NCBI GenBank assembly: GCA_036630325.1
Contig: CP142727.1
Span: forward strand, 930,001 to 994,000
DNA: 64,000 nt
Direction of reading: 5' to 3'
Origin: Vairimorpha necatrix
Lineage: Eukaryota
Shown here: positions 25,151 to 51,400 of the stretch, in pieces
Position numbering within the stretch: the stretch's first letter is position 1
Layout of the letters: each line of letters opens with the position of its first letter
Made by a program: the position numbers and the translations under genes
The notes under the pieces: model-generated
What the model was told of the DNA's origin: nothing
Database searches by the model: none
What the model saw: the letters and a program-made list of their open reading frames with translations, nothing else

Positions 25151-25199
25151 ATGAATTTTTGCAAATATTACTCATTAATTAATTTTGTATGCATAAATA

Positions 25200-27828: not shown

Positions 27829-28666
27829 GGGTGAAAGATACCACAGTACCCCCCATTTGAGGGTGTTTACTTTATTTTTTCGAACCCCAAAAACGAAGTG
27901 CAAAGTAAAGGAGGAGCAGGAAGGGGACAAAAATTACTAAGCACTTACGACATTAAAAATAACAAATAAATATATTTTTATGTACAGAATCATATTTTAA
28001 TACAAGTTTTAATAATTATTTTAAGTATTGTGTCTTTTTTGTCCTTCTTATATTTTCAATTTTTTTTTAATTTTTGGTTTATTATAAAAGGAGATTTTCT
28101 TCAAAAATCTACTTTTATGATAAACCAAAAATTAAAATTATAATATTATTTATTTAAGAAAATTTTAATAAATGTTCAACGATCTATAAAGATTGTTAAA
28201 TCAAAAAATTTAATTTAAAATTTGAAAAGTTAATTAGAAATATACTTTTATGATTATATTCTTTTTTTAAATTGAATTTCGTACACAAGAGTATATTTAT
28301 TTGGTGTTTTTTATATTTAAAGATGCAAGTAATTTGAGTGCTAATGATCGCTTCTCCTTTATTTTGCACTTTGTTTTGGGGGTTCGAAAAAATAAAGTGA
28401 ACACCCTTAGAGGGGGTGGGGTGTTGGTCCCCAATTCTAATAAATCAGAAGGGTAAAAAATGCTTGTTAATTTATATAAGTGTAAAAACTTGTATTAAAA
28501 TATGATTCTGTACATAAAATATATTTATTTGTTATTTTTAATGTCGTAAGTGCTTAGTAATTTTTGTCCCCTTCCTGCTCCTCCTTTACTTTGCACTTCG
28601 TTTTTGGGGTTCGAAAAAATAAAGTAAACACCCTCAAATGGGGGGTACTGTGGTACCTCACCTCCC
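27829..28666. mobile_element. Merlin-family MITE with ~180-bp TIRs
   Basis: Near-perfect long TIRs; TSD AATGTTTA / GATGTTTA; empty site in copy B at ~53907-53914. Confidence 0.92.
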
Positions 28667-29682
28667 GATGTTTACACAATGAATGACTATATGGGGAATA
28701 CGATATGTCAAAAAGACAAAAATGTAATAACTATGTGAATAATGAAATTTGTATTTAGAATATTAGTTTATTATTGTTTAAAAAATATCTTGTTAAAAAT
28801 AAAGTAATACTACCAAAAAGAACGAAAAGGTACTATTTTCTTACATAAATTTTTCTAAAAATCTTAAAAATAATTAAAGAGGCCAATTGATAGAGTAACA
28901 TCAAAATAATAATTAACAGGGAAAAACTATTATGAAGTTCATAAATTTTAGAAAATATGTTAACATCCAAAAAATACATCCAATAATGTAAAAACATAGA
29001 TACATGAAAATATAATAGAATAAATATTTAAATTTGAAAAATACAAAAGTATAAAAACATGGCGCAACAATCTAGGCACTTTTTTCTTCATTTTGAGGGC
29101 CTTCGTAGAGAGAGACGAGAAAAATAATAAAGGCATTTCATTCCATGAAGACTTTGATAATTTCAAATATTAACTCTCCGAAACTCTCAATGTTTTTATT
29201 ATCGCTTCTATTCTTCTGCTTCTAAATTATTTATAGAAAGACAGGATAATACTTTCTTTAAATCCCATGCAGTTATAATGTCACATTAAAGAGGAACCAG
29301 GTCTTTCTATTAGTTTTGTATCCTCTACTACTTTGTTTTTAAACCCTTCATTGTGAATTACTACGTTTGATCGCCATTGATAGATCCGACTACTAAGGAC
29401 AGTATTTCTTTGCATAGTTATACAAATCGTTTTTTCCAAAACCGAAGTCATGGTCCTATAGTCCCGCGCCTATGTACTATTTCGATTCTTAATTCTAACG
29501 TTTGTTCGTTTTTCTTACCAATCATATACATTTTTCTATCTGCGTCGTTTTTTACCCGACATAGATTATATATAATTTCCCATTAATATAACAGTTTCGT
29601 CGGTCTGTTTCACTTCTTCAACAGCCCTCTATTTTTTTGGTAATTGATATTTTACTTTTCCAGTGCTTTGTATATTTTTTTT

Positions 29683-30211
29683 GGAACATGGGTATTATAC
29701 GACATATTATGTCGTATAATACCCATTAAAAATATTTTTTTCTTTACTCAAAAAACGAGAAACATAACCTCAAGATTGGAACAACTTTTGTCATTAGGAC
29801 CTATGAAGTAGGTCCTTTGATCGAAATTTAAAAAGAAAAAACTTATTTGCATTCTCTTGGCAGTACCTTGTTGTTTTTTAAAATGAAAATGATTTTACAA
29901 GTTAAAGTGTAATTCATATTTATTTTAAAATAATTTTCTTAAGATCATGTGCATAATACCACATATTATGTCGTATTATACACATGATCAAAAAAAATAA
30001 GTATTACAATATTATCTGGATGAAATTATGTTTAAAGATAAATATAGAAGCTGAACTCTAACTAAAATACTTGGGTTACTGTTTGTTTTTGAATAAAAAA
30101 ATCAATATTTTATCTTTTACTTTATATCTAAATCTGCGAAAATTTTATTTTTTTTGGATATGTCGTATTATGCCCACTGGGGGGTCATATGTCGTATTAT
30201 ACACCTGATCC
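29683..30211. mobile_element. MITE built from palindromic TIR modules
   Basis: GG...CC ends, T8 TSD on both sides; empty site with a single T8 at 54918-54925. TIR related to the Merlins at 33143 and 57221. Confidence 0.88.
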
Positions 30212-32424
30212 TTTTTTTTAGCCCTGTAAACAAGTAAATCTAACATTGGGGAATTTTTGTTAAAGTTTAGTGTAGACCGCTTTACAGTAAATTAAGGCAA
30301 AACATAACAACTATTTATGCATAGATTCTGCGGTGTAAAAAATGAAGTATTATCGAAAACTTTTAGTGGTGGTCCGCGTTCTGCCTTTGGCACTAACCCA
30401 AACCTGTGACAGTCTATGTAAAATCGTTTAGTGTTAAAACCATTATCGTGAGACAATTCGTATATTTTATAGGGATTTTTATAAAATTTTCCTCTACTAG
30501 CCCTATACCACCATGTGGGCCTTAAAGAATTTTACCCTACTGTCGAACGGCTTAGGCATAACAAAGGGTAAGTCTTTTTTTCAAGTAAAGATAGAGTAAA
30601 CCTTACACAAGGACCACAGAGATTAGGGCGATGATTTTATTTAACTTGTATTGTGAGATTCTAATCTACTAAACCTCTCTAAATATAACAAACTGAAGCG
30701 GCCAGTTCCGACCGTATTCATTTGACAGGGACCAGAAGAATTCTCTTTATTTATACCTCAAATTGCGTCCAGAAACCCCTTACATCTGAAATGCTTAACG
30801 GGCATGGTCATTTGAAATGCTATACGGGCATGGTCATCTGAAATCCGATAAGAGACATAATCGTACTAACTCAAAGAGTTCAGCAATCTAATATACTGTG
30901 CACATTTCATTTTTTACCACCTTTTGAATGTATGATTAATTCACTCGTCGTGTAATAAAACGTTGTAGGATATGTTTCACGAGACATTATAGGACCATAC
31001 TGCGCCTAGTCTCTCAATTAGTTCGAACCCCCGACTCTTAACACCAGCTTCGGCTCTGAATACGCGTTGAAACATCGGATACTTTCATGTATCACTGTCA
31101 CCACAAAGACGATACTTTTCGGCCCTGAGAGCATCTTACACTAATGCCTATCCTATTATTGCAGGACGCGCACAAATTTTATTTAATTAAATTTATGATT
31201 ACTGTGGACATAATCGTCGGTTGTAAACAAGTATGCCATCGTATTATATAATATCTGAACCAATAGCTATTAAAACCGAATTTTGAAGCGAACAAACTGC
31301 ATCAGGAAAACACCACAGACTACAAACTGAAAATTTTAATAAAATGATGCATAATAGATCTTTTAAATACACCATACAGATATTTAACTCTTTAAAAAAA
31401 AATTGTATGACATTAAAAACTTTCTAGAATTTTACTAAAATTTATAATTTCTTTAGTTTTAAGGAAACCCCCTTAAAATAGAAAATGAAAGAAAATTACA
31501 AAATCAAAAAGAGAGATCTATTGATATGTAAGGCATCAAAAATAAACTATTGAAGCTATCATAAACTTACAACCGCATAAAAATCAACCGGGAATTTTTT
31601 CATAAAATGGTCTTGTTATGTAAAAATTGTAATGGAAGTATAAGCATTAATAGTATACCAAATGATATGTGCAAATAAAGAAAACAATAATTGAGAAGCA
31701 AGTTTCACAAATTAAAATACTATTTATGAATGAAAACATACAATTTAGCCGCAAAAACAAAAACTTCAAATGAAATTGTGAATCTATATTATAGCTTGAT
31801 GATTAAGACAAACAATTACTTCAAAGCTTACTTAATAAAAAAAGAAGAAATTAAAAAAAATAAAAGATGTAACATAGAGTTAAAGAAAAGCTAAAAACTA
31901 TGACATACCAAACGAGTAATTAAAGACAAGATCTGATCTTAAAATTATCAACTGTGATAATTTTTTTGTACTGAAAAAGGAATGGTAGCACGCTGGACTG
32001 ATAAAAATGCGAACACCCTCAAGAATAAACCCGTCTTTTCAATTTATAGGACATTAAATTGTCTTCTCTGGCCTTTTGAGTTTTCGTAGTATTTTTTATG
32101 TATGAATATAATATAATTCCTTTTGCTTATTTTCTGTTACTAAGATAAAAAAATACAAAACATATATTGAATATTTTCAACTACTATTTGCTTTGGCAAA
32201 TATTAGAAAAGAGATAGTATGTTACTGTACACAAAGCATTGCATAGCGTTTATTAAGACACCAGAGTAAGATTTTGTGCATTTCATTATTCACAGTTTAT
32301 TTTTAATGCACAAATCAATAAGATTTTTTAACTTATACAAGGAAGAAACGAATTTAAGATTTTACATAAAATATTTGCTTTGTATGATATTCACTAGTAA
32401 AGGATAAAGATATTTTAAACGCTA

Positions 32425-33012
32425 TAGACGTATGGTCTATCCCATGCCGAAAGAATTAGAAATCATTCAGTCCAGGCATGTGTAGCTAATGAGTATGTTG
32501 AGATACGAGTCGACGGTAGGATACATTCAAGTATTAAAATAAAGTATAACAAGCCTGATATACTAATTGTAGACAAGTTGAGGAAAGAAGTGATCGTTGT
32601 AGAAGTTGGAATCACAAGTTTTAACAACCTCCATGCAGTAAAAACAGAAAAGAAACATAAATACGACTTGCTCGCAAAACATGTGGCTTCTCTCTATAAG
32701 TACAATCCGAAAATTATTCCTTATGTGATGACGTGGTATGGAATAGTAACTAATTTTCACCGTACGCATATCAAAGTGCTCAGATTAGAACCCAGAACGG
32801 AAGCATATATACAGTCAAGAATCCTTAAAATGACTTTAGAAAGCCGCACTATGTCAGCCAGACATGGGCTTGATACAGATCAGGAAGGGGTCTTCGAGAG
32901 CCCAATGAGTGAATCTCAGAAGGAAGTCCTAGACAGCCAGATGAGACTGTATGCGTATCTTGTGAAAAGTAATTAATAAGCCAAATATTATACCCAAATA
33001 AATTATATATTC
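32425..33012 (+). mobile_element. 5'-truncated R4-like insertion
   Basis: KPDILIVDKLRKEVIVVEVGITS..KYDLLA..VMTWYG. 12-bp TSD TTTTAAACGCTA; empty site in copy B at ~57090-57101. Confidence 0.88.
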
Positions 33013-33142
33013 TTTTAAACGCTAAGATATTTAGTTGGATTAATATGCAGAGTTATAGTATATCTAATTAAAGAATTTCTTTAACTACAATATAACAAAA
33101 CTTAAACATTAGCTTTTTTTGTTTTAATGATATAGTAGGTAG

Positions 33143-35448
33143 AGATCATGGGAATTATACGACAAATTTTGTCGTATAATACCCACTAAAATCAATTTTT
33201 ATTTTGTCCCTAAAAATTGAAAATAGAACTTCAAGATTGGCACTTATCTAAACATTAGAAGCTTGAAAAAGAAACTGTAATTGAGATTTTAAGAAAAACT
33301 TATTTATTAATTGTTTAAGGTGTAAAAGTAATGTCATAAAGGCTGAAGATTCCCTCCCCCTCCCCCTCAGAGGGTGAAACTTAATTTTTACGAACCCCAA
33401 AATTGAAGTTCAAAAAAAGGAGACAAAAATTCCTAACAACTTTAAAATATTAAAAATATAAAATAAATATATTTTTAAATACATAATTTAATTTTAGTTT
33501 CATTTTTTAGTCAAAAGTCATTTTAATGTTATTTTCAACGTATTTTTAGGATTATTTCTTTTAAAAACAAATAAGTTTAACCAAGGTGTAATATGTATTT
33601 AGGTCCTATATCTAACTGGGCTTCCCAATTTAACAGCTGCCCACGTGTCTTCGATGTGGTTAGTGTGTACACCTGTCGTCAAATCTACAAAACCAATGAA
33701 GTGGTTTACAGTAAAATGTCTGTATATGCCAAACTTGGAAAGGTTTGCGTATCCTTTCCAACAATCTGTATATATAATGCTTTCTGCTAAAATATATTTG
33801 AGAATTACACTTTCTAATTTAATTGCCTTTTTATTGTCTACTTCTATAACAACATTTTTCTATGTGTGGTCCTTTCAACCATCCCAAGAACCCATGCTCC
33901 ATCGACTTTATGTCCTCTTTGAATATTTCTTTTACCGAACTTAGATTCGTCTATTTAACTATGATGTCTGGCCCACCAATCATTTCATTGCTTTTATGGT
34001 CTTTTGTAATGTTTTTTTAATGTTCTATATACCACCTTTTTACTTATTGATAATATTTAAATTATCGTTTTAGCAGGAGTATTATTTATAAATAGAAACA
34101 TTGCTTGGCTAGTTTGTAACCAACTTAATTTTGTTCGAAAAAAGGTTTTTTATATATTAAAGGCATTTCAAACCTACATCTTTTTTTACTACATCTTAGA
34201 AGATTTTGGTAAACCTTTGTCTTTTTCAAAGTTCCACTACATTTTGGACAAAATCTCCCTAATATGCATGAATCTATGCATCTAAGCATGCTTTCTTTTA
34301 AGTCTTATAATTTTCTTCTGACATTTATTTAAGAGTAGGGGCAAATAAACAAAATATAAAGTAAACTATGAAAAAATTTATAGGCTCACAAATCAAGTAT
34401 TAATAAAGATGAGGTGTTTCCTTTGGGCTAAAATTGAATTTTTGTATTCAAATATATATTTATTTTATATTTTTAAAATTTAAAGTTGTCAGGAATTTTT
34501 GTCTCCTTTTTGCTCCTCCTTTTTTTGAACTTCAATTTTGGGGTTCGAAAAAATAAAGTAAACACCCTCTGAGGTGTTTCGGATCCCTCCTCCGTCATAA
34601 ATGCATAATCGACAAGTTTAAGATACATGTAACATCTTAAAGAACCCAAAATTATAAACATTTTAAATGTTTAAAAGCCTTTTCTACTTTTTATACGCAC
34701 CAACTCTTTTTTACGATTGAAATTTAGTTCATCTGACGTCTGTACCTTATAATTATGTGGTTGAAAAATAAAAATATAATGTCAGATTATAATAGTCATT
34801 CTATCGACTGCGAAAACTGTTTCTAAAATAAAGTCTAATAACGAAAATAATTGCATAACACTTTTATTTAACTCTGTTCTGTCAAGATAATGGAATTGTA
34901 TGACATGTAAGCTAATCATTATTTCGCTACAAGCAGAAATGTCATAATAGTAATGTTTCAAATAATAAAGTGTAGTATGCGGTATCGTTGATACAACTTC
35001 ATAGCTGCAAAAAGTATCAAATGTCTTAACTAATAGATCTGAAGAAAATCTGTTACCTATTATTAAAAATTTTTGTAAAGATTGGACTATTATACACAGC
35101 GATGAATGGGTTGCCTACAATATAAAATACAATAAACATTAGGCTATAAACATCAATAATAAAAAATTCTCTTAATTTTGTATATTTTGACACGGTAGTA
35201 AATACTCAACATGCATAATCGGGCTAGGCTAAGCAAAAATTAACATTAAAGAATGAAAGGCATAAAGAAATATGTATTGCAAAATTATTTTGCAGAAATT
35301 ATGTTTAAAGATAGATATAGGAGCTGCGATTTAAGATTTTTTCTAGAATTAGTGTTCATTATATAAAATCTCTTGATTTTATTTTCTTTTTTTATCTTAG
35401 TCTGCCAAATCTTTATATTTTTATTATTTCGTATATTATCCATGATTC
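33143..35448 (+). mobile_element. Degenerate Merlin hosting a second Merlin
   Basis: TIR GATCATGGGAATTATACGA; NLLPIIK..WTIIHSDEWVAY; uninterrupted counterpart at 57221-58273. Confidence 0.68.
33341..34593 (-). mobile_element. Degenerate Merlin/ISXO2-type transposon
   Basis: TIRs, perfect 8-bp TSD GTCATAAA, IGGPDIIVK*TN / DESKFG-like motif; absent from copy B (~57413-57420). Confidence 0.9.
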
Positions 35449-35892
35449 AAAGATAAAATAATAACGGGAACACAATTTACAAATTATGTTGTAGAAGATT
35501 TTAATTCTGCATTAAAAAGACAATTGAAATTACTACATCCAAGTTTAACTAAATTTCTTATGTGTTAAAAATCTCGATTTTTAGACGAAATTTACAAATA
35601 CAATACCAATTATCAGAAAATAATCTTCTAAAAAACAATAAATGTCTTTTTTATCATAATGGGTTAGAGATTATACAAATATACCACATCTCTTCTCAAG
35701 ATGGTTAGTCGCATCAAATTTCCACATCTATCTCATTCATACTCTTCAGATCATAATGTCTCTCTTCAATAGCCTACTAATACTAAATTTTACTACATAA
35801 GAAATTTTCCCACACTACGCAAATTTCCCTATGTCCAAAAATCTTTCTTCCTCATACTTATTAACTCATGCCAAAATTTCTCGTTTAGCTAT

Positions 35893-36157
35893 TGTGATAT
35901 TATGAACATCATCTGTCAAAGGTCTAATCGATGACGAATCAATGTGCCAATAAACAAACAAAAGAATACCTTGGCAAAGGGGTTATAAATGAAAAAGCAT
36001 TACTTTTAGTAAAATTGCTAAACAATTCTTATATTAAAAATAAAAAATAAAAAAAACTTTGTCTTTAAAAGGTATGGAACATCAAAAAAAAACAAGAACA
36101 TTAACAACATTTTAGAAAGCTATTTTAAATATAGCAAAGTCCCAACCATACAGGACA
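35893..36157. mobile_element. Solo LTR in the integrase tail
   Basis: TG...CA with 5-bp TSD GCTAT; also present in copy B at 58719-59027. Confidence 0.75.
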
Positions 36158-37917
36158 GCTATTCTTACAATTAACTTTTACTAATTTCTTTGATCTTTTA
36201 TTTTCTAAACCTAAGGTAATATTTTCCTATAGGGCTATTTCCAGGCATTACGCCTCCAGTTTTATCTTCGGTCGCTTCTTTTGGTGTACATTTTAGTACT
36301 GTATGATAGCTCCGATTATATATATCGATACTTTTATGCAGTTTTCTTCAAAAGTTCCCGAATCCGACCTTAAAATATTTTCCCTCAAAGTTTCTATAGC
36401 GCGCTTTACTCTTTCGTTGCTTCTATTCTCTTTTATACCTTCTTGTCGGTGTATTATATTTAGAACTCTACAAAATTTTCTAAATTCCACGCTAATAGAG
36501 TCTTTACCGTTATCTGTAATAATTTCTTCTTGTTTAATTCTTCCTCACATAATTTTCTCAAAAAATCCAACAATTTTATTACTTAACTTGGTATTTATAA
36601 CTATTCCCCATACTCTACGTGTTAAATAATTAATAGCAACTAAAACATATTTCTTCTCATTTCTAAAGTCTATCAAGTCAAATGCAACCCTCTCTAAATA
36701 TCTCGACGTATCTACAAATTTTAACCATCCATATTTTTTCCTGTTATATATTTGAAATTTCCGGCACTGTTTAATAACCTCGTTTATTTCTTTCTTGACT
36801 CCTGACCAATAGTATTCTTCTCCCATTGCATAATAAACACTTGTCATACATCTGTGGCCTCTTTCTTATGATGTTTTTGAATTAATGTCTTCTAATATTC
36901 GCCGGTGATATTTCAACTTTACGTCCTGAATCAAATTTCTAATATTGCTTTCCATTCATGGCAGAAACATGTACTTTCCATTTACCTTCTATTTACTTGT
37001 CGATCGCTCTTTATTCTTCATTTGTAATATCCTCTGTCAAATTTATTCGGATCAACGCATCTGCTACCACCATCTCATCTGGTTTTTTATATTCAAAGCT
37101 AAAATCATATTTCTGTGTCTTCTTGATTAAGCGATTTTTTATTTAAAAAGGGCTTGTTTCTTATCTCAACCAGTGCTTTGTGATCCGTTTTTATCTTATA
37201 TTCCCTACCTTTTAACTCGTATTAAAACTTATCAATGAACAATATATCGCAAGCATTTCCTTTTCTGATATACCACATCTTACTTCTGTTGTGTTAGCTT
37301 TTTAGATACCCATTGTATAGCAACCCATTCTCCACTCTTATTTTTATATAGTAATACCGCACCTAATCTCAAGTTACTAGCATCTGTTTTTAGGATGAAC
37401 TTTTTATTATAGTCCGGCAATCATAGTCTTCACATTTTTTTATGAACGCTTTTCATTTCATACATTTTTTCATCTATCTCTTTCGTCTATTTCTACGAAT
37501 TTCTATTTTTCTTTCAAACTTTCAGCTATTTTCAACATCAATCCAGCATTTTCTTCCATAAATGGTCTGAACCAGTCAGTAAATCCTCCAAACCTTCCCA
37601 ATACCGTCAAATTTTTGGTTCTGGATACACCAAAGCATTTATTGTTTTGTATTTCGTCGACCTAATATCTGTTCCATCTAACGTCATTTTAATAAATTTA
37701 CTGCCTGCTGTATTAACTGTATTATCCCTTTTTAATTTCATTGATTTCTCTTAATTCTTCCTAAAACCTCTAGTACTAGTTCATCGTGTTGACATTTATT
37801 GTTGGCATGTTTTACTATTCGTCTATGTATACCTAAACAACATTTCCTGACAAATACTCAAAAATCGTTTATCGTTCGCTGTAGTATCTATGGGGAAATT
37901 TTGTATCCCATCACCAT

Positions 37918-40598
37918 TGGCGTGTTTACCGGGAAGCTTGCCTGTAGCAAGAAAGCATTCAATGATGCTACGGTTTGGGGAGCCGTGAAAACCGGAGTTA
38001 AAAGAGTTAGAGTGAAACGATTGTTTATTGTTATGGAAAGAGTTTTGTTTATCTGATTTGTAGAAGGAAGAGGGTTTGTTATTGTTCTGATGTTGTACCA
38101 TGTTGTTTCATGGAATTTCTTTATTTACATACATGGTAACCAATAGAAAAGAAATAAGATTTGGCTGACCAATAATAGTCGACCATAGTTGATCGTTCCG
38201 AAGAAGCATCAGCGTTTTAATATTTATTGGTTTTATAAATCATGTGGTATGATCCATTATACCACATACTGGCCTCCTTCAGAACGCCAAATTTCGAATG
38301 TGCGTCCACGTTTTTTCATCTTTAAGTCTTACCCAATTCCCTTTAGATCCTACTTCTTCAATTAACCTTTTTGGTCAATATTTGCGATCAAGTTTAGAGG
38401 CGCTCAAATTTCTTTTATAGACTGTATCTCCTTTCATGAGAGGTGGAATATGCTTGATAGATTTTTGCTTTGGTGTGTATGTCTGTGGCTTGTTTTCAAT
38501 GTCATAGAAATCTCGCTTATTGGCTATAATATATGGAGATGTTCGAATTCCTCTATTATAGTTTATGTTTAAAGTTTCCTCGGCCATTTTAACTGTTTTT
38601 AGTATACTTTGATTTTTATTAATGGATAGTATAAACGCGATGGTCTGATTTATTCGCTCCGAGATTCCGTTAGATTTGGGCGTATAAGTAGGTATTAATA
38701 TATGATTTATTCCTACTTCTTCAAAATAGTTCTTTTGTGCTGACGACGTGTATTGCCTGCCGTTATCTGATATTACGTGCTTAGGCTGTTCTTTTATTTT
38801 TGTCCAATAATCTATCGACTCGATTATTTGTCTTGTTTTAATAGATTTAAAGAAAAATAATTTACTTTCTATTGAAAATATATCTGAAATAGTCAGGATA
38901 TATCCTGTCTTTTCCTCGGGAGTTGAATTGTCGTTTTGTTCGTAATATTTAAACGGTCCGAATATGTCCGTCGATATTCGTTCATATAGCCTTAGTGATT
39001 CTAATTTTGTATTTTGTAAGCGTTTATAAGTACTTAATAATTCTTTGTCTTCTGAAACAATGGGTAAGCACGTGGTTTCGTATAATATTTCATCAAGTGA
39101 CTCTTTGGTCAACTTCTCTGCGTCGATGAAAGAGATCTTTTTATTATTCTCCAAGACTAGCATTCTTTTGTTAATATTTAATATAGCATTGTTGGCGACA
39201 AGAAATTCATATCCTATAATTAAATCTTCTGGTATTCTTTCTAACACATAAAACTTAACAAAAAATTCTTTTTTCGTCAAGCGCTAACTTTGTTTCTACA
39301 GATAAGGATGTCGTTTCTTTAGTACCACTTCCGAATATCATGGTTACTGGTTTTGCCTCGATAGGTTTTAGATTTAATTCTTTTAATAATTTTTTATGAA
39401 TATAATTGTGTGTTGCGCCTGTATCAATGAAAAATTGTAGCTTTTTAGAGTGCAACTTTCCCTGTATTTTGATTCCATCTTGAGTAATTGTTTTTAGTTC
39501 CGAAATAAGTAAATTATTTTTCTGTTCTTTATCATTCCTATGCTGGGAACAGTCCTTTGTGTTATGAAATTTCGATTGGTGCTACTTACACCATTTTTTG
39601 TTTGAAAAGGTTTTTTTTACTTTAGAGACAGATATCGTGGTTGCACAGTATTGTTTAGCGTCTGTCAATTGTGCTATGATGGTTTCTTTTAATTCCGATA
39701 AAAAATTAATTACTTCTTCGAATGAAGCCGTTTTAAGTCGTTGGTCTGTAATTTTTATTGTGGTGTGTGTACCTAGACCTTTAAAGAAGATTTCTTCTTG
39801 TTTTCTTTCTACCTCCTTCCTTGTCAATTCATTTACGTGTATATATCCTTCTAATTCTTGTAAAATTTTCTCCATATATTCGTTTATGGTTTTATAGTCC
39901 GTCTGCTTAATTTTATCTATTTTATTAGAAAGTATTCTGCATTTAGTTTTTGGGTAAATTATGTCAAGAAGCTGTTTTCTTAGAGCAATATAGCTATTCT
40001 TTGCAATTTTTCTTTGTACATGCTATCGTAAATTAAACTATGGTAAATTTGTCCTGCTTGGGAGTCGTTCCACTTGTTATAATTGGAAAGTGTTTCAAAA
40101 TCATTTAGATTTCTTAGCGAAAGTTCTGTTTTAATATTATAGATTTTTTGAATGTGCTCTCTGATGGTAGTTTCGGTCCCTTCTACGGTTCGAGTGGATT
40201 CAGCGTAGGAATGTTTATTTTCAGATAAGAACTCTTTTTTCGTATAGCCATTTGAGCTCAAATTGGCGTGTTTACCGGGGAGCTTGCCTGTAGCAAGGAA
40301 GCATTCAATGATGCTACGGTTTGGAGTGCTGTGAAACCAGAGTTTAGATAGTTGGAAGAAAATAATGTTTATTGTTATAAAATGAGTTTTGTTCATCTGA
40401 TTTGTAGAAGAAAGAGTGTTGTCATTGTTACGATGTTGTTCATGGAATTTATTTATTTATATATATGGTAACCAATAGAAAAAAAATAAGATTTGGCTGA
40501 CCAAAAATAGTCGACCATAGTTGATCGTTTCGAAGAAGCATCAGCGTTTTAATATTTATTGGTTTTATAAATCATGTGGTATGATCCATTATACCACA
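37918..40598 (-). mobile_element. Ty3/gypsy element lacking RT/RNase H, inserted in the RT of the compact element
   Basis: LTRs 37918-38266 and 40264-40598; 5-bp TSD ACCAT; PPT GAAGGAGG; gag remnants, protease FFIDTGATHNYI, integrase core. Confidence 0.92.
38375..39280 (-). CDS. In-frame fusion of protease C-terminus and integrase catalytic core
   Basis: 301-aa ORF: EDLIIGYEFL followed by ISTDIFGP / ISDNGRQY / GISERINQ (D,D,E). No RT, RNase H or HHCC. Confidence 0.65.
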   Translation of the reverse strand: MTKKEFFVKFYVLERIPEDLIIGYEFLVANNAILNINKRMLVLENNKKISFIDAEKLTKESLDEILYETTCLPIVSEDKELLSTYKRLQNTKLESLRLYERISTDIFGPFKYYEQNDNSTPEEKTGYILTISDIFSIESKLFFFKSIKTRQIIESIDYWTKIKEQPKHVISDNGRQYTSSAQKNYFEEVGINHILIPTYTPKSNGISERINQTIAFILSINKNQSILKTVKMAEETLNINYNRGIRTSPYIIANKRDFYDIENKPQTYTPKQKSIKHIPPLMKGDTVYKRNLSASKLDRKY

Positions 40599-41789
40599 AC
40601 CATACTATTCCATTCGTAAACTTTCTTATTTAATTCAATGGCCACTTGTGTTTATCTTTTTCTTCGATTTCAAAATGGTAAAATGCTTCTTTACAATCAA
40701 CAACAGTAAATATCATCGGCCCTTGCTTAGCTCAATATTTTCTCTCATATTCGATAATTCATATGGGCCTTTCTCGATTAAATCATCAACCCTATAAAGT
40801 TACTAGCTACTCTTACTTCACCACTTGGTTTAAGTATCGCTCTTATTATATTTCTCCATTCCGATGACGATCTTCTAATAATCTTTCTATTTTTTAAATC
40901 ATTAATATATTCCTCTGTCTGTTTGATTAAGCCTGTGAGATCGTTTGTCCCTCCCTGACTATCTTCTTACCCTCTGGTGTGTCTATCTTACACTTTTCTA
41001 ATGTACAATAACCTATAGCCTTATCTCCTTGTTTAAAAACTTCTTCATATTTCGCTTTGAGGTCTTACAACGTAAATTCCTTCTTTAGTAATCTTTTTTG
41101 TCTCTTTATTGCACGCATATATTTTTTCTAACTTTCTTTTATCACTATTATTATATGCCCCCAACTTAACTCGTTTTGTCTTTCCATTTGGTTTATATCC
41201 TTTATTATCATCACTGCTATTATAACTTTGACTTCCGTCTAACTTTAAATACGAATAAAGCTCTTTATCATTTTCCTGATTATTGTTTCTTCCTAGATAG
41301 CAGTTCCTAGCCATATGGCCAAATTTCCAACAATTAAAACAATTCCTACTTCTTCTTATTTCTTGTACTGAATTCCTCAAAACTAAATCTTTCTCTTGCA
41401 TTTCTTTTCTCATGGTTTCTCTAACATTCTCTGTTATAGCCTCAAGAAGTTCTCTCCTGTTTTCTTCTCTACACATTTCCCCTCTAATTTCTCAATTATT
41501 TTATAATATTCGTCCTCTTTACTGATTCTTTCTACCATAAAAATTTTTATTTCTTCACTTCCTCCCATAAACACATTTGGCTTGCACAAAATGGATTCTA
41601 CTTCCACCATCTCTGCCCTGTACATAATTCTTCTAACTTCCTTTGATGACTTTTTGACCTCTAGACCACAGTCCCTACTTGTAAACTGACAATTCGGTAT
41701 CGCCCCATATCTTTATTTATCATAATGAGGGTAGAAATTATACAAATATATAACAATAAGTACAAACATTGCCAAAGAGAATTAATAGC

Positions 41790-42978
41790 CTCACATTTGG
41801 GATTATTCGATTTTTTCGAAGCCCAAAATAAAGTTCGAAAGAGGTTGAGCAATTAGAAGGCAAAAAATAATGTCCCCTTACGATATTAAAAATACTTAAT
41901 AAAAAAATAAAATGACTTTTGCTTAATTTTAAGCCATTTTTTTTTGATTTAAACCATTATAGAAACAATTTCTAAGGGTGTTATTAGTATTGTTTCTTCT
42001 AAATGAAAATATGTAAAATCTTATTATACCTTTAATTTCATTTTTTATTGGTATCACGTTTTTCTTGCAACCAAATTCTTTTAATTGTATTTGTTTGGAC
42101 CTTATTCATTAGAATACACAACCAAGTGCATTATTTACTATATAGTAGTTATAAATTCCTATTTTTCGTAAATTTACGTATTCTTTCCAACATTGCGTAT
42201 TGAATATTGATCCAAGTATTACGTACTCTCCGATGAACCTTCCAAAGATTTGGCCTTCCAATTTTTTACCTTATGTAGGATTGTTCCCCTTTTTGCCATT
42301 ACGACCATTCTAAGTACATAAACAACAAACTTTATGTGTTTTATTCATTTTCAATCCCTTAATTTTGACGAGTCAATCTCTACAAAAATACCCAGTCCAT
42401 CAATCTTCGTTTTTGTCTTAAACAATCTTAACAACTTCACAAATTATAGTATTTATTAGCCTTTTACTCATAAATAGTTTGTTTTTCATGTTTTAAAAGA
42501 AAGGTTATTAAGAATTATAAAAATCACTCGACGCTCTTTAACCAAGGTAATTTTGCGTTAAAAGGCTTTTTGTTTGTTAAAATGATAGCTTCTACATGTT
42601 CTCGTCGAACACTTGAGTAGTTTAGGCCTTTTTACATATTTTAAATTAAACTACAAATGAAATATAGCATAGTTTTATTTGGATTTCAATGCTAACAACC
42701 TTGATTTCTTCGTCCTCTTTATAGTTCTCGATCATTTTTAAGGGGCTTGTATAATGCAACTTAATTAAATTTATAAAAATGTTAAATTTAAATTATCCTT
42801 AAAACATTATAACAAGACAACTCTGGTTAAAATTAAATTTAAAGCCTTTTCTTTATGAAGCATGTTTGATAGCCAAAATGGTCAGAATTTTTTGTGTCCT
42901 ACTTGCTCCACCTTTTTTGCACTTCATTTTAGGGGGTCGAAACACCCCCATATCTAAATGCGGTGACTGTAAGTTTCC
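41790..42978 (-). mobile_element. Degenerate Merlin/ISXO2-type transposon
   Basis: KIDGLGIFVEIDSSKL, VLRMVV; eroded TIR-family sequence at both ends. Boundaries approximate. Confidence 0.65.
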
Positions 42979-44561
42979 TAACTTCCAATTTTTTTTCTTA
43001 TAGTAGACATATTGATGGTAATGATTGTTTAAAGCATATAAAAATTGCGTCTTTATATAAATTTAAGATGATATATTACAATAAATTTATTCATTTTGAT
43101 TTCTCCTTATAGAGCTATATTTATATAAATTTTCTTATATACTTTACGTACTTTTCTTCAGAAATTTTGTCGCATAGAATCTGTCGAGGTTTTATGTGTC
43201 AGACTTAATTTGTAGAAGTTTGTCTTAATAAGTTAAAGAATTTATTGATAATGTAATAAAACGAATATGTATGGTTTATACTACGAATATTGTTTTTTAG
43301 CACATAGGTAGATTTAATATAAAACAATAATTTTATGTATCTTAAAATATGAAATCGAAATTATCTAATTCTTACTGTTGGATCGATGACTATAACAGAA
43401 AAAAATCATAAATGTTTTTTGTTATAAAAATAATCAATAGGACTATTGGTTGTAAGCAATCAAAGATGTTTCACCTATTGGTTAGATATTTGCTTTAATA
43501 AAACAATAAAAATCAACTTATCAAACACCTAATAATTGCTGCAGCATTTATTACTTTGTGCTTTTAAAAACACTTTAACCAATATTGCTTCTTAACTATG
43601 AGTAAAACTTACGATAGTACACATAAATAGAAAATCTGTGTAAGGTGTAGCCACAAGATCAAAATATGTAATTTCAATCAGAAATGCTATAGTTAAAGTT
43701 AATGGACGATCTTAATTTGACCATATGTCTGTTTTGTTGAGGAAAATGGTATCACATGGAAGACAGACTTCTAAATGTGTTCATCTTTGGTTTAACTGGG
43801 CATTTTCCACTTGCCTTGTTCGTTAAGAAGTCTTTAGATAAAACGTTATTCAAAAAAACTTTGAAAGAACAATGTACGCCTTTTCATGGCGAAATAAAGT
43901 ATATACATATTGAGGTAAAGAAAGACTAGCAATTTACGCGAGATTAAAGGGATTATAAAATACAATAAATAAGACCAATGGACATTTAAAAACACATTTC
44001 GACATTTAATTTTTAATTATAGAGTCCATTAGATTATAAAATTTATAAATTACTGAGAAATAACTCCGTAAAACTTGGGGTTAATAGCGGTGTTTCCAAA
44101 GTATACAGTACCACCTGCCCATTTGTGTATCTATTTATATAATTAAACAGACGGCTAGGAATTTTTATTTATTTACGAATAGGTATTTCTTAAATTATGT
44201 AACAAACGCAATAAGAGAGATGGCGTTGTGCAAAATTTAAAAAAAATAATAAAATGATTAAAGGTCTATATAAATCATGAAAAAATTAAAAATAGTAAAT
44301 TTATTTTTGTCTGAGTAGTAGTATGATATCCTAAATATCATACGATATGTTTACTAACACTTTCCTCCAAATTTGACATCTTTCCCTCCAAGTCCAATAC
44401 TTTCCCCTTGATAAATATTTAAACATTCTACCCATTCAGGAGTACGAGATGAATAAAGGACAGGAAACAAGAAGAACAACCAATACGGTAAACAACCAAA
44501 TAAATATTGATATTCTTGATATGTTCTTAAGTGGTGGATACCACAAGTAGTCTCAAATAAA

Positions 44562-45160
44562 GGCTGGCCGGAAGTTTCGTCCCGGTGGTAGGGGATAAAA
44601 AATAAAAATACTCATTTTTTTTTTATTTTTTAACCCTAAACACCGGGACGAAACTTCCGAAATAAAAATAAAAATTTAAAACTTAAATAAATTCAAAGAT
44701 ACAATCTGCACCAAACCCTCCATCTTCAGTTTTATTTAAAAATTTTACCTCCGAATCTCTTATTCTTCGTATTTTTGTTTACGTTCAAAACATGATTTAA
44801 AACGGTTTGATCTATTATCTTGATTTTAACTATATCTTTTTCATCCTTGAACTTACTCACTAAAAATGAAAACTGTAGCGACTTGTACCAAATAAGTTTT
44901 TAAAGGTATTATGCCAACTTTTAATGCATTAATCGTTCTTGAAAAATCTACATCCATACTATTTCGCGTGTGCCACAAATTCGGCGGAAACAGCATCCTA
45001 AATCAATTTAATTGGTATAAAAATAGGAATTTAACTTGGTCAAGCATTCCGGGAAATTTCTGTATTGTTTTAATTCTAAAAAATATACAATAAAACGTCT
45101 TATTTAATATATGTAAGCGCCGTAAGATACAAAACAAATTTTTAAACATAGATTCACATG
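44562..45160 (-). mobile_element. MULE/Mutator-like 3' end
   Basis: LFPPNLW..RTINAL/SWHNTFK..KFKDE; 19-bp inverted repeat CGGAAGTTTCGTCCCGGTG (44569-44587 / 44641-44659). Confidence 0.62.
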
Positions 45161-47447
45161 TGCCAGAAACAGGTGGATATCAATGTATCTTAAATAATAC
45201 TCTATGAGTAAAGTTGGAATATTCTTAGATGGTAACATTTTTAAAGATATTTTTTCTTTATAAGTTTTAAAGGAGTTTCTTCTTTTGATAGAAACATTCT
45301 ATTGGTAGAAACAGATTGATCCTGTTTCAGAATGAAACAATTATAAAAGTAAATAAAATCATGTTGTGTTATGTTTACATAACATTCTACCCCACCGAAG
45401 CCCAGTGTTTAATGTTCTTTACGTGGTAACATTTGTCACGCCCTTTAACTTTAATCCATAGCCCTTTGTCGGAAACTTCATCTACTGCATAGGGTCCTTC
45501 ATATTTCTGCCCCAATTTCTCTGCCGGAATTCTCAAATATACTTTATCATCTTTTTTATATTTATTGAACCTTTTGATTTCTTCATAAGGTCTTATCAAC
45601 TTTGTGTCTTGATAGTGCTTTATGTTACTGGGGTCGGAGATATCACGTCCTGTGGCAATAGTTAAGGCGTTTCCCTTTGTCGAGGTCAAGTAATTTTTGT
45701 TGACTCTTTGGCGTACTTTTGCCAGTATTCTTTTTATCCCTTCTTCTTATACATTCTTAAAATTTCAGAGAATGTTTGATTTAATCTTTCGCTGATTCCA
45801 TTTGAAGCAGATGTTTGCGCCGGAATTAGGTTGTGGCGTATGTTATTACTTTTGACGAAACTTTTAATTTAGTGCTTGTGTAATTTCGACCATTATCTGA
45901 AACTATTATGCTTGGTGTTTTGTAAGTACGACACCACTTCTCAAATACACTAACAAGCGTCTCGCTTCTTATGCTAGTAGTGAATTTGACCAGCGTGAAT
46001 CTCGAATATATATATATATATATATATATATATCTGTTATTGAATAAGGTAGCCCTTATTCTCCCCTTCTCAATACTCATGTCTTCCACATCAAACGGTC
46101 TATAGATGTCTGAAACACTGTACCAAAGCTCTTTTGAGATTATAGTTTTATCTTTGGGGTCGTTTTGTTTTCTCACCTTTTTATTCAGTTTGAATTTGCT
46201 GCAGTTATCCATGATTTCTTTAAACTTTTAATTACTATTTTTTATCCAATAATATTCTCTTACGTTGAAGTAGCAAGCATTAATTCCTACATGCGCACTT
46301 TTCTGTGGATGTATTTTAAATATTCGTTTGCATATTCTTCTTTGATTATGTATCTACCTTTCTCATCTTTGGTAGAAAAATCACACCAATTTCTTATCGG
46401 CTAAAGTAAGCATTAGCTACAAAAAATCGATATAGAGGTTTTTTGCCCCTTTTTTTAAAAAAATGGAGGAAAGAATTCGGACGGGAAGAGAATTGGAAAT
46501 CATATATTGTTTGATGGCTATAAATAGCAATATATTATTAAATACCCCAAATGTCTACTATTCTCAACATGGCACCCGGTACAGAAAACTCGTATAGAAG
46601 GATGGAAGCACCCAACTTCAGTTTAAAAAGTGCACTTGTAGATTGCATGAAGTTTGAGATATATTTTAAGACAAAAATATAATTGTAGATGAGGAAAAAA
46701 TAAACACCGTCTTATTATGTTCAGACGACGAAGCCGCTTATTTCTTGTACACAAACAAAGAAAAATTTACAAAAATTACATGGCGAACATTTAAGGGAAG
46801 AATTAAAAAATACATGGAAAGGAATGCTTTAGAGAAAATTTTAAAATCAAAACAAAAATATAATGAAGCAACAGCAACTCGGATAAAAAAAGTTCTTCCC
46901 CTGGCAAGTGCAGCCAACTTGCCTCAAGAATATACTAACATCTTATTAAGAATACATGTATTAACTTAGATTCAATGTTGATTATCCAAGAATGTTTGAT
47001 GGAACGTAATATTTACAAAGAGAAAGAAATGATTTTAAAAGATATAGATGAAGTGGAATATATTAAGAAAACTGCAAAAAAGATAAAAGCTAATAGAGAG
47101 ACAGTAATGAGAAGAAAAGGCGTTTCAGAGCCAAGACATAAAGAACCCATTAAACAAACTGACAAAACTGAAATGAAAAAATTTAATCAATTAGTAAAAG
47201 GGCCTATAGATAAAAACAAAAGTGATAATGTAACTGAGATTAAACTAAACAGTGTAAATATTTCCGCTTTTATGGATGAAGGATCAGATGTGAACATTAT
47301 CAATGAAAAGAAAGTAGAAGAAAGAGGGCTTTTTGCTTTACCCTGTGAACATACAACAATAAAAAACGTGTTTGGGGTAGTAACAGAACTGACTAAAAAG
47401 GTAGAGGTAACATTAAAAATCAATGATATTATACTTACTTAGGAATG

Positions 47448-48496
47448 GGCTAAAATCAGCATTAGTGTAAAAAAAATGGGGGGGTCAAAATTTTTAAAAA
47501 AATGCCCCTTTTTTAAAAAAAGGAAGGGAATGCTGAGTAAGGAAGAAACTGAAGATTTTTACGAACGTCTGCTAAACAAGAAATATAAGCAGAAATGTGC
47601 AAAATGTGGTTGGAATACGTCTAGAGTATCCAACGAAACAGCTTATTTGAGATGCAAGTTTCCCAAATGCAGGCACAGATTTTCAATTTGGAATAATACC
47701 TTATTTTCAAATAGTAAAATAGATCATCTTCTTATGTTGAAAATAATTAATCTGTGGATAATTGGAATTAAAATAGCGCAAATTTCAAAAATTTTGGATT
47801 GTAATGGTCAAAATATAAGTTACACACTCGAAAAATTATATAAATTAAAAATTTACGAGAAGTATATAAATAATACAAAACAAATTGGAGGCGGAAATAT
47901 TATAGTAGAGATCGATGAAAGTAAAATAGGGAAGAATAAATACCACAGGGGAAGATTGGTTAAAGGTTTTTGGTGTTTCGGGATGGTAGAAAGGACAGCC
48001 GAAAAGAAGATAATCTTTCAAATAATAAAAAAAAGAAACAAGGAAACATTGCTACCCATTTTATTTAAGCATGTAAATTTTGAATCCGTCATTTATTCGG
48101 ATATGTGGAGGGCGTATTCAACGTTAAAAAATCACTATGCGGACCATAGGACTGTGAATCACAGTCAAACTTTTAGAGACAGTGAGACGGGTGTTCATAC
48201 AAACACCATCGAAGGGAATTGGAGGTCTTTAAAAGCCTCTATACCCAATAGGTGTAGGACATATGAACTAGCTGAGATATATTTGACCCTCTATATGATT
48301 AGGAGAAATGAGAATCAAAATACCTTCGAAGCATTATTAAAATTATGTTTTTGATATATTTATTTATTTTAATGTTAATTTTTATGCATTTCTACATCTT
48401 AATTGCATTTTAGGATTTTCCTGAAGTTTTCTCTTCCCTTCCTTTTTTTAAAAATTTTGACCCCCCATTTTTTTTACACTAATGTTGATTTTAGCC
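47448..48496 (+). mobile_element. Intact Merlin/ISXO2-type DNA transposon (1049 bp)
   Basis: ~50-bp near-perfect TIRs starting GGCTAAAATC; perfect 8-bp TSD TAGGAATG; single intact ORF. Confidence 0.95.
47530..48354 (+). CDS. Merlin/ISXO2 (DDE_Tnp_IS1595) transposase, 274 aa
   Basis: N-terminal CxxC..Cx4C; VEIDESKIG, IYSDMWRAY, VNHS, HTNTIEGNW. Start placed at the ATG after the CCCC motif; the ORF-track ATG at 47476 lies inside the TIR. Confidence 0.92.
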   Translation: MLSKEETEDFYERLLNKKYKQKCAKCGWNTSRVSNETAYLRCKFPKCRHRFSIWNNTLFSNSKIDHLLMLKIINLWIIGIKIAQISKILDCNGQNISYTLEKLYKLKIYEKYINNTKQIGGGNIIVEIDESKIGKNKYHRGRLVKGFWCFGMVERTAEKKIIFQIIKKRNKETLLPILFKHVNFESVIYSDMWRAYSTLKNHYADHRTVNHSQTFRDSETGVHTNTIEGNWRSLKASIPNRCRTYELAEIYLTLYMIRRNENQNTFEALLKLCF

Positions 48497-51400
48497 TAGG
48501 AATGTTATGTAGGAGCTTTTAAGAATTTCAATGAAGACATAGTTATCGACAGGCCAACTTCAAATAAAGTAAAAAAACTTAAAAATGAACTTTCAGAGCT
48601 TGTAAGAAAATTTCCAAAGGTTTTTGATGGAAAGACAAGTAAAGGATACACGGATATAATGTGTGAGATAAACACTCCGATAGGTAAGACAGTGAATATA
48701 AAATACAGAAATATACCACAGGCCCTAATGAAAGGAGCACAAGAAACAATTAACAAATTATTAGAACAAGGATATATAGAATGTTCGACATCAGCTTTGT
48801 GTAATCCCATAAGACCAGTATTTAAAACAGATGGCACTGTTAGAATTACAAACAACATGCAATTTCTGAATAACCTAGTTGGAGATAACAACTATTCAAT
48901 ACCTGTATTTCAAAACATAGTAGATGCCACGCGAGGTAAAAGATTTTTTACAGTTATAGATCTGACAGATGCCTACTATTAAATACACCTGAAACCTAAA
49001 CATAAATATAAAACCGCATTTTTGTTTAAAAAAAACTATATTTATACACACGGATGCCACAAGGCTTTAAGAATTAACCTGGCATGTTACAAATGATAAT
49101 GGATATATTACTAGAAACCACCTTAAAACTGCTTGTTGCGTCTATTTAGACGACATAATAATTTTTGAAACAACGGGGACACGAGATAGAGAAATGTTTT
49201 AAAAAGCCAAGTTACAAAAAAGACTAGTAGACCGTAAACGTATTTTTGGGCGGGATGTTGGATGGCTAAAATAGCAATATTATCATTAAAGACCCCCCAT
49301 GTCTACTATTCTCACAGTAATCGTCTCTATTTATGTTTTCTTTTAATTTGCCCGTGGATCCTTGCTTTGAATTCAAATTGCCCGAAACAGGTGGCAAGTC
49401 ATTGTATCTTAAATAATACTCTAAAAGTGAAGTTGGAATATTCTTAGAGGGTAACATGTTTATTTAGATTTTTTTTTCTTTATATAGTTTTAAAGGAGTT
49501 TCTCCTTTTGATAGGAACATTCTATTGGTAGAAACAGATTGATTCTGTTTCAGAATGAAACAATTATAAAAGTAAATAAAATCATGTTATGTTATGTTTA
49601 CATAACATATGGAAAGCACTGGTTTTATCTATTGTAAATATGGTTGCAGTCGATAGACTGTCAAAAATTGCGTCGATTCTAAGAGTCATGTATGCGTCCT
49701 TAGCTGTTATGTTTCTAGCTCTTATTATTCTCCGCACATTCTTCATGTTTAGCCTGGTTTCGGTACAGTCAATATTCTGCCACATCATGGCTCATGCTTC
49801 CCTTAAAATCCGAAGTTCTAGGAGTTTGATGGTTGCCTCGTTTACAGCCTCTTCTTGTGACTCTGGCATTCTTCCGTTCCTTTTACAAATTATTTTTGTA
49901 CTGTTCGTCTGTCTTAGATCAATGCTTTCAGTTCAGAGATTATAGTAGCTTATTTCTTTTTAAAAATCGTCTTCATACTCTTTTAAAATTTCATTATCTT
50001 CTAAATCACAAGAAAAGTTTGACATTTAGTAGATTCTATATTTGGGGGCATATATATCGTCTAAGATCAAATTTTTCATTGTTACATATCAAATTTGCAA
50101 CTAAAACGACATATTTAATGTCTTTGATTATTAAGGGCGAAAAAATCATACATTTTTTATTGATTTCAATTGTAGAGTCTATTAAGGAGTTCAATATAAT
50201 ATTTCCTTTCCTATATTCTTAACATCCCATTATATTCAATAATCTAATTACGTTCTTCCTAAGGAGTATTGTTGTAGTTTATGTTCGAAGCATTGGCTCC
50301 GGTATATAATACCTTTATATTTATTTAAAAAGGCAGCTTTTCACAAAAAAGTTCTAAACTATTTTGTAGAAATTAAAAAAAATGTATGGTTTTACTGTCA
50401 TGGCCTTTTGCATCCTGTCATATTCATCTAATGCATTTTTATATTTTTTTTAAAGGTTTTCTTTTCGTACTGAAAATAATGGTTATTTGAAATCTTTACT
50501 GAATAAATTACATTATTTATATAGTGTGCGTTGTTTATGATTCTTTCTCAAATGGTTTGTATAGCTTGTCTTTCTGTAAAATTCATTTTCGTAGTGAACT
50601 TTGGTGTTGTGCCCTCTGCCCACGTCGGCATGCAGCTTGGTTCCTACTTACTTCTTATTAGGGCATAGAATAAACTCATCTCCTCGACAAGTCTAAACTG
50701 TAGTAATATTTGAGTATAAAAGAGCTTTTATCTCCATTGATTATTTGTTTGACTATTTGACACAAAGCGTCTAAATTTAAAAGAGGATCTCTCGAATAGC
50801 ACTGCTGCTTTCTGCAACATCTGTGACAAATCTCTATCTTCGTCTCTGTAATGTTATTAAACCCCAATGTTTAAAGTTATATCGTTGTCTTTATGAGGCT
50901 CGAAAATTTCCATATATGAACTATCTCCAATGTTTCCATTTCCCTCCTGGGGGTTGGGACGCCCATAAAAATGCAATTCCTTTATGCTTACAACAAATGC
51001 CATTTTATATTATTCTTTGGTCCACCTTAAAATTCTAGCACCAGCATTGTGTTTATTATTTTGGTGTCGAATACCTCTTTTGTTTTACTTGTGTAGTATC
51101 CAACATAATTCGTCGTTGTCGACATGTCAATTTGTTTATTCATATTTCCTATCCTTTTCGGAAATGTTTCCAAATACATTTAACAGTAAATCAAATCTAT
51201 TCATCTGTAAGAATATGATTGGTTAATCTTTTATCGACTACAACAGTTTTTTTTGACAAATTTTTGCAAATATTACTCATTAATTAATTTTATATGCATA
51301 AATAAATAATTTTTCATATTACTCTTCATGATTAAAGATATCTAATAAAATTTATTTAATGAAGCATCTTTTCCCTTCTCTTGTCTCTATTTCCTTCTTC

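Follow-up and report, generated by a model that had tools for sequence, protein, structure and literature searches.

Reverse transcription in retroelements with long terminal repeats (LTRs) is primed in three known ways, by the 3' end of a tRNA, by an internal tRNA fragment or, as in Tf1, by the element's own 5' end. The primer anneals at the border of U5 and the first base added to it is the last base of U5. To our knowledge a palindrome in place of the primer site has been reported once before, in the fungal GalEa copia elements. Their Conserved Hairpin Site (CHS) is a 10-nt palindrome at the LTR border that varies at symmetric positions, which according to its authors fits no model described so far (PMC5445492), and a paper on bivalve terminal-repeat retrotransposons in miniature cites it, again without a mechanism (PMC6934838). 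Within these sources the GalEa site is the closest published case and is itself unexplained. Our literature search turned up nothing on the primer sites of LTR elements from microsporidia, and the main text of a survey of microsporidian transposons mentions neither primer sites nor palindromes (PMC4202319). Here we describe two Ty3/gypsy elements, E1 and E2, that lie on the minus strand of a 64,000-nt stretch of the Vairimorpha necatrix genome (contig CP142727.1, positions 930,001 to 994,000; hereafter the window) and carry a perfect palindrome where their 5' LTR ends.

The palindrome sits at the LTR border, is part of a coding frame, is conserved at the nucleotide level, changes in a compensatory manner and has no other partner in the element. 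We propose, with a confidence somewhat short of even, that it is the minus-strand primer site of a clade of compact microsporidian Ty3/gypsy elements and that it would act by self-pairing between two RNAs. These elements begin their one gag-pol frame within the 5' LTR, so that the site is translated as well.

In E1 the 5' LTR ends with ...AACACGCCA and is followed without a gap by ATTTGAGCTCAAAT, a perfect 14-nt palindrome. The end of this LTR is fixed, as the 3' LTR ends alike and a target duplication lies on both sides of the element; the 5' LTR is 88% identical to 37916-38266. In E2 the 5' LTR ends with ...TTTCGGGCA, after which come a single A, the palindrome TTTGAATTCAAA and a G, the LTR end being set by alignment to the 3' LTR, to which it is 91% identical. 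A first-pass annotation of the window had placed palindromes after both 5' LTRs, and this is borne out, at a distance of 0 nt in E1 and 1 nt in E2, with both LTR ends confirmed. The pattern TTTGANNTCAAA occurs twice in the window, both times directly after these two LTRs; shuffled versions of the window contain it 0.59 times on average, and 6 of 100 shuffles reach two occurrences anywhere.

That the palindrome is translated had been omitted from the earlier account. The gag frames of E1 (ATG at 40396) and E2 (ATG at 49457) begin in the LTR downstream of a TATA-like run, as the gag frame of Ty1 also begins in the LTR, and they cross both the LTR end and the palindrome. Together with the last A of the LTR the palindrome of E1 reads AAT TTG AGC TCA AAT (N L S S N), and the codons of the E2 palindrome are AAT TTG AAT TCA AAG (N L N S K). 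Two stretches of the window, one in E1 (40321-40004, NRSIIECFLATGKLPGKHANLSSNGY...) and the other in E2 (49430-49311, SLLEYYLRYNDLPPVSGNLNSKQG...), can be aligned with the N-terminal part of P0003 (MLNKSLLELYLKQGEIPGGHRILNSI...), a gypsy polyprotein from Nosema granulosis; the stop-to-stop gag frame of E1 (39980-40456), which contains the first of these, has a hidden Markov model match at E 3.5e-28. The peptides encoded by U5 of E1 and E2 are homologous to each other and to P0003, and the LTRs give no DNA alignment. The earlier description of E1 and E2 as two unrelated gypsy families is thus to be abandoned, as LTRs that are unalignable as DNA nevertheless encode homologous Gag N-termini in their U5 parts, which places both elements in one clade, and the motif is therefore inherited by descent and not convergent.

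Over the 19 aligned codons upstream of the palindrome, 15 of 57 bases are identical between E1 and E2 and all five shared residues differ in codon (a shared Ser, for example, is AGC in one element and TCA in the other). Within the palindrome the two elements agree at 12 of 15 bases and encode all three shared residues by the same codons, AAT, TTG and TCA, of which TTG (a share of 0.18 among Leu codons) and TCA (0.20 among Ser codons) are non-preferred. The 20-50 nt downstream of the palindrome share nothing between the elements. Selection acts on the bases, on top of peptide coding. The change of the central GC to AT, previously put forward as covariation, does keep the site self-complementary but is weak when taken alone, because in the coding frame it exchanges AGC (Ser) for AAT, the more frequent of the two codons for Asn (0.69). 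The strong evidence is the wider protein family and two further DNA examples.

A profile of three Gag N-termini (E1, E2 and P0003), searched against 1.84 billion protein representatives with a cut-off of E 0.001, recovered 70 proteins at or below that value, which puts E1 and E2 together in a single clade comprising 70 protein clusters or more. Nine of 10 long relatives submitted to a domain scan carry retroelement domains: six have RVT_1 and RNase H (four of these with a protease (PR) ahead), one has PR followed by RVT_1 and two have PR only; the tenth gave no match. Protein word searches with the Gag N-terminus returned the query itself or nothing, and no relatives of the single proteins P0055 and P0058 were found in viral contigs.

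The capacity to encode the palindrome was scored in the 47 of these 70 proteins (P0003 excluded) that have residues in all five palindrome columns, each residue being given the synonymous codon that best suits pairing. Palindromes of 12 nt or more in the same phase can be encoded by 36 of the 47 (shuffled columns, mean 14.4 and maximum 22 in 1000 trials) and the full 14-nt palindrome by 19 (mean 8.3 and maximum 15, again in 1000 trials). The five-residue segment that holds the palindrome ranks first among the 93 scored, its mean centre run being 5.40, against 1.35 on average and 3.50 at most for the 92 lying more than four columns away. Across the family, residue pairs switch together as base pairing predicts: Leu (TTG) occurs with a residue encoded by A.. 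(Ile, Lys or Asn), Met (ATG) with one encoded by T.. (Leu or Phe), and Val with Gln or Leu, and the place of Asn-Ser (AATTCA) is taken by His-Ala (CATGCA), Tyr-Thr (TATACA) or Leu-Thr (TTAACA); a single subfamily contains three of these variants. In addition, a codon ending in C is possible for the residue ahead of the palindrome in 46 of the 47 proteins, and one starting with A for the first palindrome residue in 44, as expected if the CA of the LTR falls there.

One of the two further DNA examples came from a metagenome scan with a pol alignment, which yielded 80 distant gypsy loci; a single one, L001, matches the N-terminal profile, and at the homologous place it reads ...CCGTCA T TATGAATTCATA C (3068-3083). 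Because of a stop five codons upstream, the sole ATG for this frame is that within the palindrome, and the upstream peptide is not needed. The ends of this contig repeat exactly (1-123 equals 4042-4164), so it represents a circularly permuted assembly in which two LTRs have collapsed into one. The other example, L081, was found in a scan of genome contigs; it is a 4.4-kb contig (1-4441, GC 0.38) catalogued with the metagenome-assembled genome of a bacterium, into whose bin it probably came as a microsporidian contaminant. Its 5' LTR (56-435, TGTCG...TGACA) leads into CA T GCTGATATCAGC G at 434-449, and one open frame of 1278 codons, which encodes PR, reverse transcriptase (RT), RNase H and integrase (IN) in that order, begins at an ATG within the LTR and reaches the polypurine tract; L081 is apparently an intact and very compact gypsy element of about 4.5 kb. 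A further locus of the same record set, L082, is a relative of L081. A second palindrome, AATTCGAATT, is present in the U5 of L081 (411-420), 16 nt ahead of the main one.

In all four elements seen as DNA (E1, E2, L001 and L081) a perfect palindrome of 12-14 nt follows the CA of the LTR at a distance of 0-1 nt, without a gap in E1 and with one intervening base in the other three. Over 4 sequences and 7 pairs, 92.9% of the cells are paired and 4 of the 7 pairs have changed on both sides; the covariation score was reached by none of 500 shuffles, and slid registers have 30-46% of cells paired and zero double changes. The symmetric variants comprise GAGCTC, GAATTC and GATATC, as well as TTTG..CAAA versus TATG..CATA versus GCTG..CAGC. 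Among eight other gypsy LTR pairs in the retrieved loci, taken as controls, none has a palindrome of at least 10 nt in the 20 nt after the LTR and three have TGG. The protein-encoding test and the DNA covariation together uphold the claim that self-complementarity is kept by selection and is not due to chance. Four other distant metagenome gypsies (L003, L017, L073 and L084) have neither TGG nor a long palindrome in the first 20 nt after the 5' LTR and may be Tf1-like self-primers.

The elements have the features of Ty3/gypsy. The domain order is PR, RVT_1, RT_RNaseH, Integrase_H2C2 and rve in the L081 frame and in P0003, E1 having PR and IN only, and the LTRs are direct repeats of the form TG...CA, flanked in E1 by the target duplication and in E2 by unmatched sequence. 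A site for the 3' end of a tRNA, that is TGG within about 0-5 nt of the LTR, is absent from all four elements, the first TGG of E1 lying 13 nt past the LTR and the first 16 nt after the LTR of E2, L001 and L081 containing none, in agreement with the earlier suggestion that the palindrome replaces a tRNA-type primer-binding site. The LTRs hold no complement of at least 7 nt to the palindrome, and their best duplexes are no better than the shuffle means (in kcal/mol, -9.3 vs -10.8 in E1, -7.0 vs -7.6 in E2, -6.2 vs -7.0 in L001 and -12.6 vs -13.1 in L081). The claims that the LTR of E1 contains no complement, and that no Tf1-type partner exists in the LTR, are thereby sustained. A downstream partner was also sought in the four elements, and the best duplex was again no better than shuffles; the motif occurs once per element. 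The E1 LTRs show a weak, A/T-rich match of 7-9 nt to the stretch 23-43 nt past the LTR, which was discarded as low-complexity chance and is absent in E2. A reading of the motif in terms of the anticodon arm or T arm of a tRNA was rejected by reasoning, as it needs either a loop that repeats the stem or a non-canonical G53-C61 and leaves the symmetry unexplained. The window contains no tRNA genes.

The self-duplex of the site is worth -12 to -19 kcal/mol in the four elements, compared with -0.1 to -3.5 for the hairpin (E1, -17.3 and -0.4; E2, -12.0 for the self-duplex). Since the central bases of the palindrome covary too, which is not required of a hairpin loop, the site is expected to form a duplex rather than a hairpin.

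As the 3' end of a primer pairs with the bases just after the LTR, and these bases are the palindrome, the last 12-14 nt of the primer would have the palindrome's own sequence. Because this sequence varies by family yet remains self-complementary, the partner should be encoded by the element, and because the element holds no other such sequence the partner should be the palindrome itself; since the LTR ends 0-1 nt before it, the 3' end of the primer would fall at the right-hand edge of the palindrome. We propose that the 12-14 nt site pairs with the same site on a second genomic RNA in the particle, its most likely partner, that one RNA would be cut at the 3' edge of the palindrome, in the way that the RNase H of Tf1 cleaves an RNA:RNA duplex, and that the freed 3'-OH would be extended over the U5-R of the partner, dimer linkage and priming sharing one site. 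The RNA:RNA pairing between two genomes, the cleavage and the priming are all steps that we infer. The first-pass annotation had suggested tRNA-independent priming, for instance by pairing between two genomic RNAs or by fold-back; of these, the pairing of two RNA copies best fits the covariation, priming itself being presumed. More tentatively still, the clade may have swapped its tRNA primer for its own genome, one translated site serving as dimer linkage, primer and primer-binding site and, in elements of the L001 type, also as the start of gag, which would couple translation to packaging.

Several points weigh against this proposal. Its cleavage and priming steps are predictions, the model would further need the primer RNA to be trimmed on its 5' side, and a palindromic site may be costly, as plus-strand strong-stop DNAs could pair together. 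The folds of 61-121 nt around the sites are no better than shuffles (z of -0.4 to -0.9 in E1, +0.14 and -0.72 in E2), and no larger presenting structure of the Tf1 kind was found. The protein test uses best-case synonymous codons and is blind to the real bases; 11 of the 47 representatives are unable to encode 12 nt in the aligned segment, and 6 reach at most 4 of 7 pairs. As the representatives are mutually related, the shuffle counts are not probabilities, and as E1, E2 and P0003 are in the search profile, hits carrying the motif may be favoured. The elements seen as DNA number four, and among them the LTR end of L001 is placed by homology, as its contig has a single LTR, and that of L081 by the inverted repeat TGTCG...TGACA, as its 3' LTR is cut by the contig end.

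The main rival is a pure dimer-linkage role, in which the palindrome would be a dimer-linkage or packaging signal of the kind of the retroviral dimer initiation site (DIS) or the Ty1 PAL motifs and something else would prime. Self-complementary 5' sequences mediate the dimerisation of retroviral genomes and the PAL motifs are candidates in Ty1 (PMC3592414), and the covariation demonstrates self-pairing, not priming. Yet with the palindrome 0-1 nt after the CA of the LTR in all four elements there is no room for another primer site: no TGG lies within 0-5 nt and the next 20-50 nt share nothing between elements. A DIS, moreover, is normally presented in a hairpin loop in addition to a primer-binding site, and no flanking stem is supported here, so we hold this role to be rather unlikely. 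The same translated sequence might instead have no RNA function, as a conserved Gag peptide (N-L-N/S-S) that is palindromic by chance or as a DNA site for a dimeric protein. The site is indeed translated in E1, E2 and L081 and the peptide is conserved in many relatives, but synonymous sites that are saturated in the flanks are identical in the palindrome, and the peptide changes are coupled such that the bases stay complementary. The structure of L001, with its stop and internal ATG, makes the upstream peptide dispensable, and a protein-binding site would keep particular bases and not symmetry alone; we regard an absence of RNA function as highly improbable.

Priming by a host RNA, for example an internal tRNA fragment of the half-tRNA type used by copia and Ty5, with palindromy being incidental, has a precedent in half-tRNA sites that lack TGG, which in plants are confined to Ty1/copia lineages (PMC6317226). 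The families differ, however, in paired symmetric positions, with further variants deduced from the proteins, and one RNA cannot match them all; a host RNA gives no reason for symmetry, and a perfect palindrome of 12-14 nt is, by reasoning, too large for one tRNA arm, which leaves this explanation very unlikely. Least probable of all, with hardly any chance in our estimate, is self-priming in cis, in which the first bases of the mRNA would fold back onto the site. It is the known tRNA-free mode of gypsy elements (PMC4600332), and annotators have named some of the relatives after Tf2, but the defining complement in the 5' LTR is absent, with no match of 7 nt or more to the palindrome and, in the four elements, no LTR duplex better than shuffles, and priming in cis would leave palindromy unexplained. 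Self-pairing of two genomic RNAs at the primer site is therefore the reading that we carry forward. Its components in the window are collected below.

Features of E1 and E2 in the window (positions of the whole 64,000-nt stretch)
Feature	Position	Strand	Remarks
E1 5' LTR	40264..40598	-	TGTGG...CGCCA; TATA-like run and gag ATG inside; aligned with 3' LTR and a third LTR (19413-19761)
E1 palindrome ATTTGAGCTCAAAT	40250..40263	-	directly 3' of the LTR's last A
E1 gag N-terminal open frame	39983..40396	-	ATG 40396-40394 inside LTR; crosses palindrome
E1 protease and integrase frames	38378..39581	-	Pfam; tblastn of P0001; reverse transcriptase absent between them
E1 3' LTR	37918..38266	-	5-bp target duplication ATGGT at 37913-37917 and 40599-40603
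E2 5' LTR	49379..49607	-	TGTTATG...CGGGCA; TATATAAAG and gag ATG (49457-49455) inside
E2 palindrome TTTGAATTCAAA	49366..49377	-	one base past LTR end
E2 gag N-terminal coding stretch	49315..49457	-	cut at 49314 by nested plus-strand E3
E2 3' LTR	45161..45385	-	pairwise LTR alignment

E1 is 2.7 kb long and has gag, protease and integrase without reverse transcriptase (38378-40022, minus strand). Over the integrase frame it shares 68% identity with P0001, a protein of 613 aa from Vairimorpha necatrix, with weaker matches in Nosema granulosis, Dictyocoela and Hepatospora, and over gag-protease P0001 and E1 are 90-93% identical, which places the window in the microsporidian Nosema/Vairimorpha clade. 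P0001 has the same make-up and the same protease-to-integrase junction, and the E1/P0001 type has the look of a non-autonomous subfamily that lacks RT and has spread, or else of a duplicated copy. Residues 1-32 of the P0001 model lie inside the LTR (40480-40575) and the model resumes at the palindrome centre, ...GAG/CTC... (40224-40256), in the manner of a GT...AG intron call; this is probably an annotation artefact of a gag that begins in the LTR. Gene callers thus mis-model such elements, P0001 appearing to start in the LTR and to be spliced at the centre of the palindrome, and LTR-element finders that require a tRNA match would miss or misjudge them.

Contigs of four sequencing runs were compared with 38270-49700 and are uninformative per base at both palindromes; the contig of run X1 over 39727-40291 has 27 differences, none of those listed being at the palindrome, where it gives no per-base information. 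A third LTR of the E1 family (19413-19761, minus strand, about 80% identical) has no target duplication, polypurine tract or gag alongside. The CTGGTAT reported to follow this LTR is correct as sequence but has no bearing on the primer site, since without a target duplication or gag homology beside it the heptamer is mere flank.

E2 is broken, a leader of 64 nt being followed by a plus-strand element, E3 (46508-49314), that is nested in it. The LTR ends of E3, at 46566 and 49314, are short (the repeat 46508-46566 equals 49256-49314), and E3 has an ordinary site, TGGCACCCGGTACAG, at 46567; a profile search did not find the Gag N-terminal domain of the palindrome clade in it. Two TGG-type sites had been reported in the window, and both are present as sequence (ATGGGGCGATACCGAAT at about 41707, minus strand; CATGGCACCCGGTACAG at 46567, plus strand), the LTR end being confirmed for the second only. 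Within E3 lies a 1057-bp insertion (47441-48497) that has inverted ends (47448-47502 and 48443-48496) and codes for a transposase of the IS1595/Merlin type (Pfam E 6e-18); its empty site is seen in contigs of runs X1 and X2, where 47440 is joined to 48498. A comparison of the E2 flanks gave no matching target duplication, which suggests rearrangement or LTR-LTR recombination. A large duplicated block (23520-37675 and 49608-60550, 86-94% identical with indels) has one edge exactly at the outer end of the E2 5' LTR.

Among the known systems, the retroviral DIS is likewise a self-complementary 5' sequence that pairs two genomes (PMC3592414), and such a sequence is found here; it differs in lying in a hairpin loop downstream of a separate tRNA site, whereas the present palindrome abuts U5 and has no supported stem. 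In Ty1 the 5' cis signals also fall within GAG and palindromes have been proposed for intermolecular RNA pairing, but Ty1 has a tRNA-iMet site beside the LTR, and its PAL1-3, of 6 nt each, lie apart from the primer site (PMC3592414). Tf1 and Tj1 share with the microsporidian elements the gypsy type and a tRNA-independent, element-encoded primer, and it is from Tf1 that our model borrows the cut at the duplex edge; the Tf1 site, however, pairs in cis with the 5' end of the mRNA, over about 11 nt that lie in the 5' LTR (PMC4600332), and is not palindromic (PMC5445492); the elements described here lack such a complement.

The GalEa CHS comes nearest. There, too, no tRNA-type site is present, a short palindrome stands at the 5' LTR border (A followed by CTGATCAGT or CTAATTAGT), variation is mainly symmetric and no Tf1-like complement was found. 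GalEa is, however, a copia element of Pezizomycotina and not a microsporidian element with gypsy domain order, and its palindrome of 10 nt includes the last A of the LTR, whereas those of 12-14 nt described here begin 0-1 nt after that A. In GalEa an inverse-complementary sequence, CHSeq2, lies 12-41 bp downstream and could form a hairpin with the site; E1, E2, L001 and L081 have none, and the microsporidian site, unlike that of GalEa, lies within the gag frame. The same solution is thus seen in an unrelated superfamily and host group, the covariation shows that self-pairing is kept, and what was a curiosity becomes a recurring design with a concrete, testable mechanism.

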